Shown piece after piece: positions 59,407-63,988 of a stretch of DNA of 64,000 bases. A program made the translations under genes and the position numbers. Within the stretch, counting starts at the first letter, position 1, and every line of letters starts with the position of its first letter. Origin of the DNA: an uncultured delta proteobacterium (GTDB lineage: Bacteria > Desulfobacterota > Syntrophia > Syntrophales > Smithellaceae); contig CAVPJZ010000002.1 of NCBI GenBank assembly GCA_963705555.1, positions 762,292 to 826,291 on the forward strand, in the 5' to 3' direction. A model generated the notes under the pieces. It made no database searches, was not told the origin of the DNA, and saw nothing but the letters and a program-made list of their open reading frames with translations.

Positions 59407-60516
59407 TCAGCTGGATTTATCAACCAAACGCCTTATGACTTTACCTCCGATAGTTTCCCTCGAATACAAAGCCCCGTGAGGGCAAATTTCGATACAACAA
59501 TAGCAGCGGATGCATTTTTGATAATTAAATTCGACACCAGCCTCCAAAGATTGGATGGCCTGGGCCGGACAAATTGTCCAGCATTGGCTGCATAGTTTGC
59601 ACAGATGATTATCGCAGGCAGGCAACGGCATCGTATGCCGGCGCAAAAAATTATGCAGAAAACTAGGGCCGAATATCAGCCCGCTTGTTTCCGGCAACTT
59701 GAAATCATATACAGTTGGCAAATCACCTTCTATTTCGCAGGAGTTGATCAAATTAATCTCTTTGGCGATTTTTAATACCGGTAAACTTTGATAATCAATT
59801 CCGAGCATCCGGCACACAGCAGTATCGAGCACAAACGAATCACAACTGCCTATTAAAACACCGATATGCCGCGGTTTTCCGCCCTTGCCGGGGCCTTCGC
59901 CCTCCAGTGCCAGAATTCCATCCAGTATAGACACAGTCGGCAGGCAAGCTTGATGAATGGCCACCAACAGGCGGGCAAAAGCCGTTGAATCGACACCGGC
60001 GCGCATATGCCACCGTGCCTTCTGAAAACCAATGATACAGCCGAACATATTTTTCACAGCCAGAGTTAAAAGCATCTGGCCGTGAGTTTTGAGCTTGGGC
60101 AAATTGATAATTGCATCCGCCTCAATAGCGTCTTTAGCTATGTCAATGCGGCTATAGGGCTTTCCAATGTCTACTGGAACAGTGTTTTTAAAGGGGATAC
60201 AAGTTACATTCAGACCGGCTAGACAGTCTTTAGTGCCATTCATTTTCAAGATATGTTCAAAAGAACCGATTGCTGGAGAATCGGATACCTGCGGTCTGGC
60301 GCCTTTTTGTAAAACATACTCTACTGCCGCTTTAATAATTAAAGGATGAGTTAATATTGCGTCTTGGGGTACGGCAGCGGAAAGCATGTTTGGTTTTATC
60401 AAAACGCGGTAACCCGGCTTAATTTTGTCACCGGCAAGAGTTTCGATCATTGCAAAGAAAACTTTTTTTAGCTGATCGTAATTATAAGAAGTTTTGCGAA
60501 CAATAACAACAGTCAT
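59407..60516 (-). CDS. DUF362 domain protein with C-terminal 4Fe-4S dicluster
   Basis: VLIKPN, INLPKLKTH...TLAVKN, EGEGP..G.P, two CxxCxxCxxxCP motifs. Confidence 0.9.
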   Translation of the reverse strand: MTVVIVRKTSYNYDQLKKVFFAMIETLAGDKIKPGYRVLIKPNMLSAAVPQDAILTHPLIIKAAVEYVLQKGARPQVSDSPAIGSFEHILKMNGTKDCLAGLNVTCIPFKNTVPVDIGKPYSRIDIAKDAIEADAIINLPKLKTHGQMLLTLAVKNMFGCIIGFQKARWHMRAGVDSTAFARLLVAIHQACLPTVSILDGILALEGEGPGKGGKPRHIGVLIGSCDSFVLDTAVCRMLGIDYQSLPVLKIAKEINLINSCEIEGDLPTVYDFKLPETSGLIFGPSFLHNFLRRHTMPLPACDNHLCKLCSQCWTICPAQAIQSLEAGVEFNYQKCIRCYCCIEICPHGALYSRETIGGKVIRRLVDKSS

Positions 60517-60586
60517 AACAGTTCAGTTCTAATGTAGATAAACCGGCAAACCAGTTAATTTTTAAATGAGTTGCCCTTATACTTAC

Positions 60587-60655
60587 TGGAGCCGATGACC
60601 AGAATCGAGCTGGTGATCTACTGATTACGAATCAGTTGCTCTGCCGACTAAGCTA
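60587..60655 (-). tRNA. Decayed, 5'-truncated tRNA-Thr(CGT); probable attachment-site remnant
   Basis: Minus strand TAGCTTAGTCGGCAGAGCAACTGATT-CGT-AATCAGTAGATCACCAGCTCGATTCTGGTCATCGGCTCCA; D, anticodon and T arms plus CCA are present, the 5' acceptor strand is missing and the T-loop reads CTCG. Confidence 0.8.
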
Positions 60656-62682
60656 TTCTTGAAAAAATTGCGCTGCTGCTTCCATCCCGCGCTGGTCACC
60701 AGGTTCTTGATATTTTGAATCATATCTTTATCCTTGTCTTTTTCCTCAAATGCAAGCTGTTCATAGGGGATGAGAAGATCATGAATCTTTTTTCTATTGT
60801 CTCTTTTTAGTCCATAGCTCCATCCGCCCATAAGTCTTTCAGCCATCCAGCGGCGATGTTCCATCTCGGATAATTTTTCAAGAAATTCTGGATCGTTTGC
60901 AACTTTATCAAAAACTGATAAGTCCTGACCATCAAACCCGATAGAGCGAAGCTTGACCGACAGATGGTCAGCAGACCAGCGGTTTGCATCCTTCATAAAT
61001 TCGTTCAAACCTTCCCATGCCACAAGGGCAGTATTTTCTCTTTTTTTGGCGGGATAGAGTTTGGGGTAGGTATTGTCAAGCAGGGATGCGTTAAGGATCA
61101 GTATCTGCGTTTGTTCCATAACTGAAAGCCGATCAAACGTTTTGCTTCGTAAATATTTAGTTTTGTTTACTTGCCTTTTTATTTTTGGTGTTAAAACATC
61201 TCTGTGCTTTGCACGCAGACAATAGTAAAGATCAGGTTTCTTCAAAATTTGATTAAGAGAATCTATCGGGTTTTGTTCATCAATGTTCTGCATGATCGGA
61301 ACATCCTGAACTACGGAATGCAACAGGGTAAGTGGCGTGCTTTCGGTGAAATCATCTTTAGTGAATAGAATCTGAGCATTGACATATGCCGAATGAATGG
61401 TTTGCGCAAGCTCGTCCGTAATCTCTTCTATCAATACCTGATAGCCACAGGCAGCGTCATATATATTAAAACCATGAATATTTTGATCTACTATATATCG
61501 AGCTTCTTTTCCTTTTATGAGTTCTGATAGAGAAGAGCGCATGCAGACTATGACCGGTGTGGCATCTGAACCAAGCACCCTGCGTACCCGGAGAGCCAGA
61601 GAAATACCAATTGAATCGTCATCCACAGCAATATATACAGCAACTGGTTTTTGGCCAGCCATGTTTATGATATCGGATGATGACAACAGGCATTCCGGAT
61701 CACGGTCAACAAAATTTATATTGATGTCTGGTACAACGAAAGAAGGTGGTGTTTTGCCATCACCATATAAAGCAATAAATTTTTCAGAGCGTTCCTTTAT
61801 ATTATTGTCAACCATGGAAATTCTCAGCTTTGTCCACCGGGCATAATGACCTATTCGTGCAGCCTGCTTAACGATATTCTCGCCCATTATGCCAAATCCT
61901 ATAACCACAATGGGGATGGTATCAGCAGAGATACCTTGCTGACTGGCATAAAAATCAGGAGGATATTCTTCGAAAATGACTCTGGCAGAAGTTTCATAGA
62001 CATTGAATATACTGGCATCAAAATAGTCGTAAGCTTTTGCAAATAGTTCATGACGGACAAAAATGTTCTGTAGGCTGGAGCTGGCAACATGCGCGTAACA
62101 GCGCAGGAAAATCTTCTCATCCACTTTGTGGCCGGCCTCCGCCAGATTTTTCCCCTGGTGAGCTATATTTATATTCGTTTTATCATCTCCGGAAACAGCG
62201 AATAGATACTTAGCCCTGGCGGTATTTGCCTCATCCAGCATGACATAATCGGAGGCATCGCCGATCATCACCAGAACATTCCGTTCCCTGCAACCTGCTA
62301 TATCGGGATGATTCTTTTGTGCTTCAATAACAACTACCCGAAATCCTTTTTCTGTAAATGTGTTCATCAGCCGCATGCCTTTATCACCAAGCCCACAAAT
62401 AACAATATGGCCGGAGGTCTGTTGCAGACGAATTAAATCGTATTTTTCCCGAATTTGTTTCCAAAACCCTTTTATGGTAGCTAAAATAGTACCGCAAGCG
62501 GCTAAAAATTGAGCAATATTAAAAAGAATTTCCTGCTTAGCAGGCTTGCCAACAATTATTAATAACAAACCGGCAATAGCTAATGCTACTGCAGCGATAA
62601 GCATAGCTATAATCAGCCGCCAGGAATACTTTTGAATCCAGCGACCAAACAGTGTGAATCTGGAAACAGTGTGCTTTGCCAT
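60625..62682 (-). CDS. Two-TM membrane protein with tandem TrkA-N/RCK domains and C-terminal RyR domain
   Basis: HIVICGLGDKG, IGDAS, IVVIGFGIMG; W..L......N...ADH and EH.RW..ER...GW.YG..RD...KIH..L.PY..L...EK.KD RyR pattern. Confidence 0.85.
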   Translation of the reverse strand: MAKHTVSRFTLFGRWIQKYSWRLIIAMLIAAVALAIAGLLLIIVGKPAKQEILFNIAQFLAACGTILATIKGFWKQIREKYDLIRLQQTSGHIVICGLGDKGMRLMNTFTEKGFRVVVIEAQKNHPDIAGCRERNVLVMIGDASDYVMLDEANTARAKYLFAVSGDDKTNINIAHQGKNLAEAGHKVDEKIFLRCYAHVASSSLQNIFVRHELFAKAYDYFDASIFNVYETSARVIFEEYPPDFYASQQGISADTIPIVVIGFGIMGENIVKQAARIGHYARWTKLRISMVDNNIKERSEKFIALYGDGKTPPSFVVPDININFVDRDPECLLSSSDIINMAGQKPVAVYIAVDDDSIGISLALRVRRVLGSDATPVIVCMRSSLSELIKGKEARYIVDQNIHGFNIYDAACGYQVLIEEITDELAQTIHSAYVNAQILFTKDDFTESTPLTLLHSVVQDVPIMQNIDEQNPIDSLNQILKKPDLYYCLRAKHRDVLTPKIKRQVNKTKYLRSKTFDRLSVMEQTQILILNASLLDNTYPKLYPAKKRENTALVAWEGLNEFMKDANRWSADHLSVKLRSIGFDGQDLSVFDKVANDPEFLEKLSEMEHRRWMAERLMGGWSYGLKRDNRKKIHDLLIPYEQLAFEEKDKDKDMIQNIKNLVTSAGWKQQRNFFKNSLVGRATDS

Positions 62683-62707
62683 ATCTTTGTATCGGGCTTT
62701 TCCAGGA

Positions 62708-63988
62708 TTATTGGGTAATGCCGAAAATCAACGGCAGGTCATGCTCCGTCCAAGTGTAACGACTTTTGTATATAAACGGATGGATATAAATTAAATTGAT
62801 GCCTTTGCTAGCTTTCTTGAAAAGGAGAGAAGCTCTGATAGTTTCATGCGGTTTGATAGCAACCCCTTTTGTTCCGGCAGCTTTGCTGGTAATCTTCTGC
62901 GAACGTTTAACAAAATTCACTTCAGTAACTTCGTAATTCTTCCCCGTCTTGTCGATCAGTTTTGATTTTGCATATGATTTTTCGAAAGTATCGTACAAGG
63001 CTACACTTTTCTCAATTTTGGAATTATTGCGAATCCGGATTGACAAGGTGACATCGCCGCCGGTTGATCTTATGCCGGCATATATAAAATCGATTTCTTC
63101 AGCCTTAAGAGACCCAACATTAGGCTTCATCTCGGCTTGTTCTGATACCTTTTGTTCCGATTCCGTATTCGCACGCGAGGCTTCGGTTGATTTTTTCATA
63201 AATGATGACTTATCTTTTCCCATAGGTATGAAAAAAAATGTGGCAATAACTATGATAGCGATCACCGGAGCGGCAATGAATATGATTTTCTTATTGGCAT
63301 TGTGCCATTGCTTGATTATTTTTCCATGAAGTTGGCTAAATGCTGCACGAAATGAATCTGCAAACAGTTTGAGACGCTTTTCTGTAAATGTGTTCATAAG
63401 ACGCAGACGCAGGCCTTTATCACTAAGTCTTCTTTTAGGGACATTTTCAGAGGCAGTGCTGGCGGAAACCGTATTTACAGGTGCCACTGTATTATGTGTT
63501 GTTGGCGTTACTTCTTTTTCCATTGGTCGCGAAGCTTTTGATTTAGGAACTAAATCTTGTTTTGGAGATCTTTTCTCACTATAACTGGTTAGTGTTTGTT
63601 TTATACGTTCAGCAGCTTTTTCTATACGGTCTTCTTTTCCCTCAAAAGCATCCAACCAATGTCTTCCCTGAAGTTCAAGTTTAATAGCGCCGATCGGCAG
63701 TATATTTTCAATTCTGACAGGGATTACTAAAATATTTTCCTCATCAGCCATTGAAATTTCCTTTATAACCTGTCTGGATTTATTTGATGCTGAAGAAAAA
63801 AGTAACACCATGGCAATTCCGGGACTGCCTTCAAGTACTTCTATTATCCCTTCTCTCCAACTAAATCCTGGCAATAAATCTCTATGATCTATCCAACATC
63901 TGATTTTTTTTGCCTCCAAATGGTGAACAAGTGCATCGGCAATTTTTCTGTCATCTGAACAATAACTTATAAAAACATCGTAATTCAT
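62708..63988 (-). CDS. TIR-domain protein with single TM helix and extracytoplasmic C-terminal domain
   Basis: YDVFISY, CWID.RD..PG, S.QV.KE (catalytic Glu position), IPVRIE; TM IIFIAAPVIAIIVIATFFFI; AGGAGG ribosome-binding site. Confidence 0.88.
   Translation of the reverse strand: MNYDVFISYCSDDRKIADALVHHLEAKKIRCWIDHRDLLPGFSWREGIIEVLEGSPGIAMVLLFSSASNKSRQVIKEISMADEENILVIPVRIENILPIGAIKLELQGRHWLDAFEGKEDRIEKAAERIKQTLTSYSEKRSPKQDLVPKSKASRPMEKEVTPTTHNTVAPVNTVSASTASENVPKRRLSDKGLRLRLMNTFTEKRLKLFADSFRAAFSQLHGKIIKQWHNANKKIIFIAAPVIAIIVIATFFFIPMGKDKSSFMKKSTEASRANTESEQKVSEQAEMKPNVGSLKAEEIDFIYAGIRSTGGDVTLSIRIRNNSKIEKSVALYDTFEKSYAKSKLIDKTGKNYEVTEVNFVKRSQKITSKAAGTKGVAIKPHETIRASLLFKKASKGINLIYIHPFIYKSRYTWTEHDLPLIFGITQ

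Follow-up and report, generated by a model that had tools for sequence, protein, structure and literature searches.

A tRNA-inserted gene pair encoding a membrane TIR protein and an RCK-RyR protein without a pore loop: a candidate Thoeris-like signalling system in Smithellaceae

Why would a bacterial chromosome carry, at a tRNA gene, an islet holding only a membrane-anchored TIR protein and a partner in which channel-like helices and RCK domains are joined to a ryanodine receptor (RyR) repeat? The question is raised by a stretch of 64,000 nucleotides (the window) from an uncultured delta proteobacterium of the family Smithellaceae (GenBank assembly GCA_963705555.1, contig CAVPJZ010000002.1, positions 762,292 to 826,291 of the forward strand). 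An earlier note, made by a model from the letters alone, had proposed that the TIR protein produces a signal derived from nicotinamide adenine dinucleotide (NAD+) that is read by the RCK/RyR partner. We consider signalling from the TIR protein to its partner likely and, should the two proteins communicate in this way, a role in defence is probable as well.

A two-gene islet at tRNA-Thr(CGT)

The islet and its borders comprise the following features.
62708..63988, minus strand: gene 1, TIR_2, linker, single transmembrane (TM) helix and extracytoplasmic Ig-like domain, 426 amino acids (aa); from the open reading frame (ORF), Pfam, hydropathy and a structure model
60625..62682, minus strand: gene 2, two TM helices, RCK, RCK, helical insert and RyR, 685 aa; from the ORF, Pfam, a structure model and fold search
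60586..60655, minus strand: 3' remnant of tRNA-Thr(CGT), which forms the direct repeat at the right border of the islet (Rfam and BLAST)
G000:C2:826536-826611, outside the window and 245 bp from its end: intact tRNA-Thr(CGT), the left repeat of the islet
59407..60516, minus strand: DUF362/4Fe-4S gene, host flank outside the islet, directly after tRNA-Thr in 9/14 genomes of the genus

The two ORFs lie on the same strand, 25 bp apart, just as the earlier note had read them, and are the only content of the 3,589 bp between the two 70-bp tRNA repeats; an AGGAGG-type ribosome site precedes the gene-1 ATG at 63988. The tRNA remnant claimed for the end of the pair also proved genuine, scoring 42.4 bits against the Rfam tRNA model at 60598-60655 and matching the intact tRNA-Thr(CGT) over 70 bp with 91% identity. 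Among 14 same-genus genomes that carry the downstream DUF362 gene, the pair is present in three and the site is empty in nine, where the order is phosphoesterase-tRNA-DUF362 with no insert; two genomes are ambiguous. The distribution is patchy (8 of 116 genomes of the family), and other close relatives possess the pair and its upstream DNA in different surroundings, in some cases with scraps of tRNA-Thr to the left and right. The islet has a G+C content of 40.0% compared with 44.7% for the contig, and the third-position G+C (GC3) of its two genes, 0.33 and 0.39, compares with 0.40-0.52 in six neighbouring genes. Gene 1 and gene 2 form one mobile unit, inserted jointly at tRNA-Thr.

Several further observations concern the islet and its surroundings. 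No integrase ORF was found between the repeats in the ORF list of the islet. An ARAGORN scan of the window returned no tRNA, the remnant being visible by Rfam and BLAST instead, and a snoR38 match from the Rfam search (E 0.063) was rejected because it fell under its cut-off. The last 10 codons and the stop of gene 2 (60625-60655) are read from the tRNA remnant; relatives at other sites either end earlier or have an identical tRNA-derived tail. A promoter scan yielded 15 sites against 12.2 expected and supports no promoter claim. RNA-library contigs of relatives with ~90% identity cover both genes, one of them bridging the two, although such contigs cannot show transcription. A second TIR_2 gene, of the ordinary WxxxE type and with a C-terminal hydrophobic stretch, lies ~10 kb off (L001:16119-17090; G000:C2:836499-836810).

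The association of the two genes extends well beyond this site. At 16 loci with genes at least 82% identical to gene 2, some of them duplicates, a TIR gene stands directly upstream in 14; of the remaining two, one shows a TIR tail cut by the contig end, giving 15/16, and the other has a flank of 126 bp with no upstream DNA. At 10 distinct loci with 43-67% identity, a TIR of other architectures lies within 3 kb in eight. Across the gene-2 family clustered at 90%, a TIR was found within 3 kb in 36/77 clusters overall and in 20/31 of those whose flanks reach 3 kb to the left and to the right, which bears out the co-occurrence that the earlier note had asked about; single linkage at 50% gave 15/35 overall and 11/18 among the fully flanked. 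These counts include related loci, so that kin are not independent, and they rely on a TIR profile that was seeded from the same loci and favours them. In the same manner, 39 TIR ORFs were counted in 424 kb near the anchor genes versus three in 259 kb at a distance of 6-10 kb. An independent check with the Pfam profile found TIR_2 within 3 kb in eight of the 10 family genomes bearing a Pfam RyR domain, against a background of 61 TIR_2 hits in the 116 genomes. A TIR tree gave nine changes with an open backbone and does not resolve a single origin of the RCK-linked TIRs, and a search for fusions in the size range 1216-3470 aa found none, which is weak evidence.

Since tRNA sites collect cargo, the two genes might be unrelated passengers at a shared insertion hot spot, and 11 of the 31 fully flanked clusters are indeed without a nearby TIR. 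However, the islet holds nothing else, several further sites carry this pair together with its upstream DNA, and TIR and RCK-RyR genes are again linked in many phyla where the TIRs have unrelated architectures. We regard a chance association as very improbable.

Other genes also accompany the family. Mid-distance members of the gene-2 clade keep company with genes of the SLOG/SLATT type, with GmrSD and with an additional TIR: among nine printed loci of the 43-67% group, five have an adjoining SLOG/SLATT-type gene (recognised by Pfam in three and by likeness in the others) and three have GmrSD. Upstream of the anchor, loci L051, L053 and L055 share a block of TIR, Tll0287/HAMP membrane protein and RCK-RyR, which at two of these loci is preceded by a stand-alone RyR gene. 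At L023:5276-6433, a clade member without the pore loop is followed by a CARF-family gene in place of a TIR, which hints at other nucleotide signals.

The membrane TIR protein and its channel-like partner

The domains of the two proteins map to the window as follows.
63584..63988, minus strand: TIR domain of gene 1, aa 1-135 (Pfam TIR_2 at aa 5-123, E 4e-22)
63224..63292, minus strand: predicted TM helix of gene 1, about aa 233-255 (Kyte-Doolittle peak 2.95)
62711..63136, minus strand: Ig-like beta-sandwich of gene 1, aa 285-426 (142 aa), predicted extracytoplasmic (model with a predicted local distance difference test score, pLDDT, of 91.9)
62467..62622, minus strand: two membrane helices of gene 2, aa 21-44 and 47-72, directly joined, with pore helix and filter deleted (model and family N-termini)
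61387..62418, minus strand: tandem RCK domains, in which the acidic ribose-binding positions and the two GxGxxG motifs are retained (alignment and fold matches)
60673..61047, minus strand: RyR (Repeat12-type) domain with H609, W612, R627, H634, K650 and D651 (alignment to phage RyR Tad)

The layout that the earlier note had given gene 1, a TIR domain with its catalytic glutamate, a linker, one hydrophobic helix and an external domain (here a beta-sandwich with pLDDT 92), was upheld, the catalytic Glu77 being invariant in 18/18 aligned sequences. Ratios of nonsynonymous to synonymous substitution (dN/dS) over nine orthologues indicate strong purifying selection on the TIR domain (0.09) and almost equally strong selection on the RyR domain (0.17) and the first RCK domain (0.18); the value for the Ig domain is 0.30. 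In the Protein Data Bank the Ig domain had no match at E<=0.001, its hits to Ig folds all being weak, and in the Atlas it matched unnamed clusters only; DUF4352/DUF5067, at 0.84, offers a lead. It occurs as two allele types, 77-95% identical within and 57-67% between types, and the allele type does not track the relationships of gene 2; to judge from these alignments, the Ig alleles have been swapped between strains. The linker behind the TIR domain is of low complexity. A segment of ~50 nt from gene 2 (62348-62391) is duplicated in frame into it at 63378..63427 on the minus strand (repeats D1/D2), adding 17 residues; this duplication is absent from 17/17 homologues, and an assembly artefact is made unlikely by a gap-free spanning contig from an independent run.

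The TM-Ig tail is not peculiar to gene 1. It also follows class III cyclase domains and ends proteins of ~700 aa, occurring in 32 of the 116 genomes of the family in all, and since the tail is common to cyclases and ~700-aa proteins, the gene-1 receptor is a chimera. The cyclase-TM-Ig-like receptors (L140-L146) have outer domains 40-52% identical to that of gene 1, and the conserved ~700-aa proteins (L147-L164) are blank in Pfam in the one scanned. A pairing of the cyclase receptors with an RCK-RyR gene was considered but is not supported, as no cyclase BLAST match was found in the RCK-RyR loci; the short flanks of seven cyclase loci contained no RyR neighbour, nor did the flanks of about 1.5 kb around the ~700-aa proteins.

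The origin of this tail from cyclase receptors of the same family bears on what the pair is for. The same wiring could serve no defence at all, the pair acting as a receptor for the envelope or the environment that adjusts how permeable the membrane is through an NAD-derived messenger; consistent with this are the absence of any other defence gene from the islet and the membrane anchoring of the TIR, unlike ThsB proteins, which are soluble. Against a receptor of this kind speak the patchy, mobile and tRNA-inserted distribution, the swapped Ig alleles, the relatives that lie near GmrSD, SLATT, patatin, CARF and STAND-TPR/WD40 genes, and the many phages that carry RyR-domain proteins (196 records). 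We think this explanation rather unlikely.

Gene 2 likewise has the architecture previously read from the sequence, two TM helices followed by two RCK domains and RyR with no TVGYG filter, and the deletion is larger than had been noted, since the entire pore loop is gone. Pfam recognises TrkA_N (E 1.7e-17) and RyR (E 2.9e-15), and the model (pLDDT 82, predicted template modelling score, pTM, 0.77) comprises two N-terminal helices, two Rossmann/RCK lobes, a helical insert and RyR helices. The best fold matches are GsuK (E 1e-8) and TrkA (E 6e-8), and the hits include GsuK entries with bound ADP and NAD. The distance from the first TM helix to the RCK domain is 49-55 aa in 29/29 clade members, compared with a median of 80 in 47 other members of the gene-2 family, a loss of ~26 residues that corresponds to the whole pore loop and not to the filter alone. 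No filter-like motif, TVGYG included, was found in any of the 29 clade members, whereas among the 47 distant members TVGYG is intact in two and an ESG/NSG-like motif stands in a segment of pore-loop length in 29. By these sequence comparisons, the gene-2 family descends from pore-loop channels. In K+ channels, four hairpins beneath an RCK ring form the gated pore, and by analogy it is plausible that four filterless hairpins form a non-selective leak.

The candidate receptor and its possible signal

Gene 2 contains two kinds of domain that could bind a nucleotide. In the RCK domains, G97/G99/G102/E120/D142 and G262/G264/G267/D292 are conserved in 64-78 of 78 rows, and these lobes may bind adenine nucleotides too. 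The RyR domain resembles phage proteins that, according to the sections consulted of two recent reports, bind or cleave TIR-made signals (PMC13232231; 10.64898/2026.06.04.730250). In these sections, RyR Tad gp68 depends on H129/W132, K147/H154 and K170/D171; its ligands are 3'cADPR, 2'cADPR and cADPR, cyclic forms of ADP-ribose (ADPR) (10.64898/2026.06.04.730250). RyDEP uses H75, W78, H100 and D117, and its crystals contained linear ADPR, the product (PMC13232231). H609, W612, R627, H634, K650 and D651 of gene 2 align with H129, W132, K147, H154, K170 and D171 of gp68, five of the six being identical and the sixth a conservative change of K147 to R, at 34% identity over 59 aa; the RyDEP spacing of H75/W78/H100/D117 is reproduced as well. 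The combination of H609, W612, H634 and D651 is found in 24/27 clade members and in 7/42 distant members, in which the second histidine varies.

RyR also occurs fused to RelA/SpoT, AAA and TPR-S and alone beside TIRs, as would be expected of a portable sensor. Taken together, these observations favour the RyR domain over the RCK domains as the receptor. The pairing of the two genes put forward in the earlier proposal is strongly supported by the empty sites, the 15/16 loci, the enrichment of TIRs and the purifying selection on TIR and RyR; its choice of RCK as the likely receptor has less in its favour, although the RCK lobes retain their nucleotide motifs, and the missing cyclisation tryptophan had escaped it. 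Examples of the other fusions include stand-alone RyR beside TIR-STAND, RyR-TPR-S, AAA-RyR(-RyR) and RelA/SpoT-RyR (L165-L170, L178, L043:1090-4695, L100:7134-9644), and one RCK protein of the gene-2 family, P0047 (1058 aa), has three or more RyR repeats.

The nature of the signal is constrained by the TIR itself. An aromatic residue four positions before the catalytic Glu was reported in 12/12 TIRs with cyclic products, and its mutation shifts the output to ADPR, according to the part of the study consulted (10.1101/2022.05.07.491051). An aromatic residue at this WxxxE position is present in 7/28 de-replicated TIRs near RCK-RyR genes and in 16/22 background TIRs of the family (for the background, 40 of 61 TIR_2 hits were fetched, of which 30 aligned at the Glu), a contrast with a Fisher p of 0.0014 that is overstated by kinship. 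With no tryptophan at the WxxxE position, 2'/3'cADPR is a less probable signal than linear ADPR or a derivative not yet described, and on this sequence evidence linear ADPR is a serious candidate. It binds the SLOG domain of TRPM2, as given in the portion consulted of 10.1101/2021.01.06.425286, which fits the SLOG neighbours of the RCK-RyR loci.

The same residues can be read with the roles reversed, the TIR being an NAD-depleting effector and the RCK-RyR protein a non-conducting membrane regulator, or brake, acting as a sensor, sink or hydrolase of the nucleotide. TIRs that have no aromatic residue at the WxxxE position tend toward linear ADPR, gene 2 retains the catalytic His and Asp of RyDEP (the spacing of H75/D117 equals that of H609/D651), the pore loop is lost, and stand-alone RyR genes adjoin TIRs, all of which would suit such a brake. 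On the other hand, non-hydrolysing sponge homologues share the same residues, the family is derived from pore-loop channels of which 2/47 retain an intact TVGYG, and RyR is fused to other outputs (RelA/SpoT, AAA), as in a sensor module. Reversed roles or a brake are in our view unlikely.

The reading that we prefer, and for which the balance is about even, is a Thoeris-like alarm that would arrest the phage-infected cell. The outer Ig-like domain would be triggered at the envelope, causing the TIRs to cluster; the clustered membrane TIR would cleave NAD+ to an ADP-ribose derivative; this product would be bound by the RyR pocket of gene 2, with the RCK ring, capable of binding adenine nucleotides, transmitting or tuning the gating as in GsuK/TrkA; and a non-selective leak would open among four copies of the two helices, leading to anti-phage arrest of the cell. 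A more specific version, a host-side TIR-to-RyR pathway in which a Toll-like single-pass TIR makes linear ADPR or an unknown NAD derivative and a filterless K+-channel descendant, opened via its RyR repeat, kills or stalls the infected cell, is possible and is put forward tentatively.

A number of observations weigh against the alarm. Gln73, invariant in 18/18 sequences, occupies the position of the WxxxE tryptophan, contrary to a simple cADPR model, and the missing tryptophan equally allows a TIR that merely drains NAD+. The second helix of gene 2 is only moderately hydrophobic (peak 1.89). The ThsB-type TIR profile is not reached (Pfam ThsB_TIR 13.7 bits, cut-off 21.2), and the PADLOC search that the earlier note had suggested, with the library of 2023, gave no match to gene 2 or to four of its homologues and, for gene 1, a best ThsB hit of E 0.004 over 34 aa. 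To these have to be added the islet without a further defence gene, the 11 clusters lacking a nearby TIR and the self-seeded profile behind the counts, together with the wide use of the TM-Ig tail, including its ~700-aa carriers without an RyR neighbour, which fits general signalling.

Relation to Thoeris, phage RyR proteins and channels

If the host-side TIR-to-RyR pathway is real, it would give a native function to the bacterial RyR domain and identify the likely source of the phage RyR sponges. The two 2026 preprints describe phage RyR domains that bind or destroy TIR-made signals and, in the sections consulted, name no host RyR receptor (PMC13232231; 10.64898/2026.06.04.730250). The pair could represent a new class of Thoeris-like effector and, given that most of the partner TIRs are without the cyclisation tryptophan, possibly a new signal. 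The pathway would further allow ligand sensing by Repeat12 of the animal ryanodine receptors to be modelled in a bacterium, where the old question of how derivatives of ADP-ribose act on such repeats could then be tested. The islet is the smallest test case, with two genes, natural empty sites and single-residue controls at E77 and W612; natural comparisons come from relatives in which the pore loop is intact, altered or lost.

A literature search, which did not extend to Burroughs et al. 2015, found no paper describing a host pair of TIR and RCK-RyR proteins. That work on nucleotide-centric systems reportedly treats SLOG/SLATT/TIR networks and may list such neighbourhoods, and the novelty of the association is not assured. 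The portions consulted of PMC8195603, PMC7159879, PMC9503650 and 10.64898/2026.04.20.719644 hold no relevant passage on the pair.

Among characterised proteins, gene 2 shares with RyDEP (PMC13232231) and RyR Tad gp68 the PF02026 domain and a His-Trp-His-Asp (+Lys) pocket; those, as far as the consulted sections go, are small phage sponges or hydrolases, whereas gene 2 encodes a 685-aa chromosomal membrane protein beside a TIR gene. As in the RCK-gated K+ channels GsuK, MthK and Kch, its last TM helix is followed by RCK gating domains, but it differs from them in lacking the pore helix and TVGYG and in having an RyR domain. It is unlike TrkA, a soluble tandem-RCK subunit that works with TrkH, in scoring <=35 bits where the family cut-offs are 289 or more, in possessing its own TM helices and in the absence of TrkH from the islet. 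With the animal ryanodine receptor it has in common a sequence match to the repeats of RyR1-3 and a cytosolic repeat on a channel-derived protein, whereas the pore and the remaining protein are unrelated.

The closest comparison is with Thoeris, of which types I-XI have been surveyed; in the parts of the survey consulted, the type X effector ThsK is an ion channel with unknown signal, and 29 putative effectors are referred to a figure and supplement (10.64898/2025.12.03.692087). Its main text mentions RyR, TrkA and RCK 0 times, a count that leaves the effector figure and supplement aside. The nearest types are X (ThsK), II (Macro-TM) and VII (SLATT). As in Thoeris, a TIR with a catalytic Glu stands beside a membrane protein with a nucleotide-binding domain in a patchy, mobile two-gene operon; unlike Thoeris, the TIR is of the TIR_2 type with a TM helix and an outer Ig domain, not of the ThsB type, and the receptor domain would be RyR with tandem RCK. 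On present evidence, the pair would work like Thoeris but fits no type compared, the sequences of ThsF-ThsL lying outside the comparison. To what is known of such systems, this locus adds the proof from empty sites, the deletion of a pore loop, a chimeric and swapped sensor and a missing cyclisation tryptophan.

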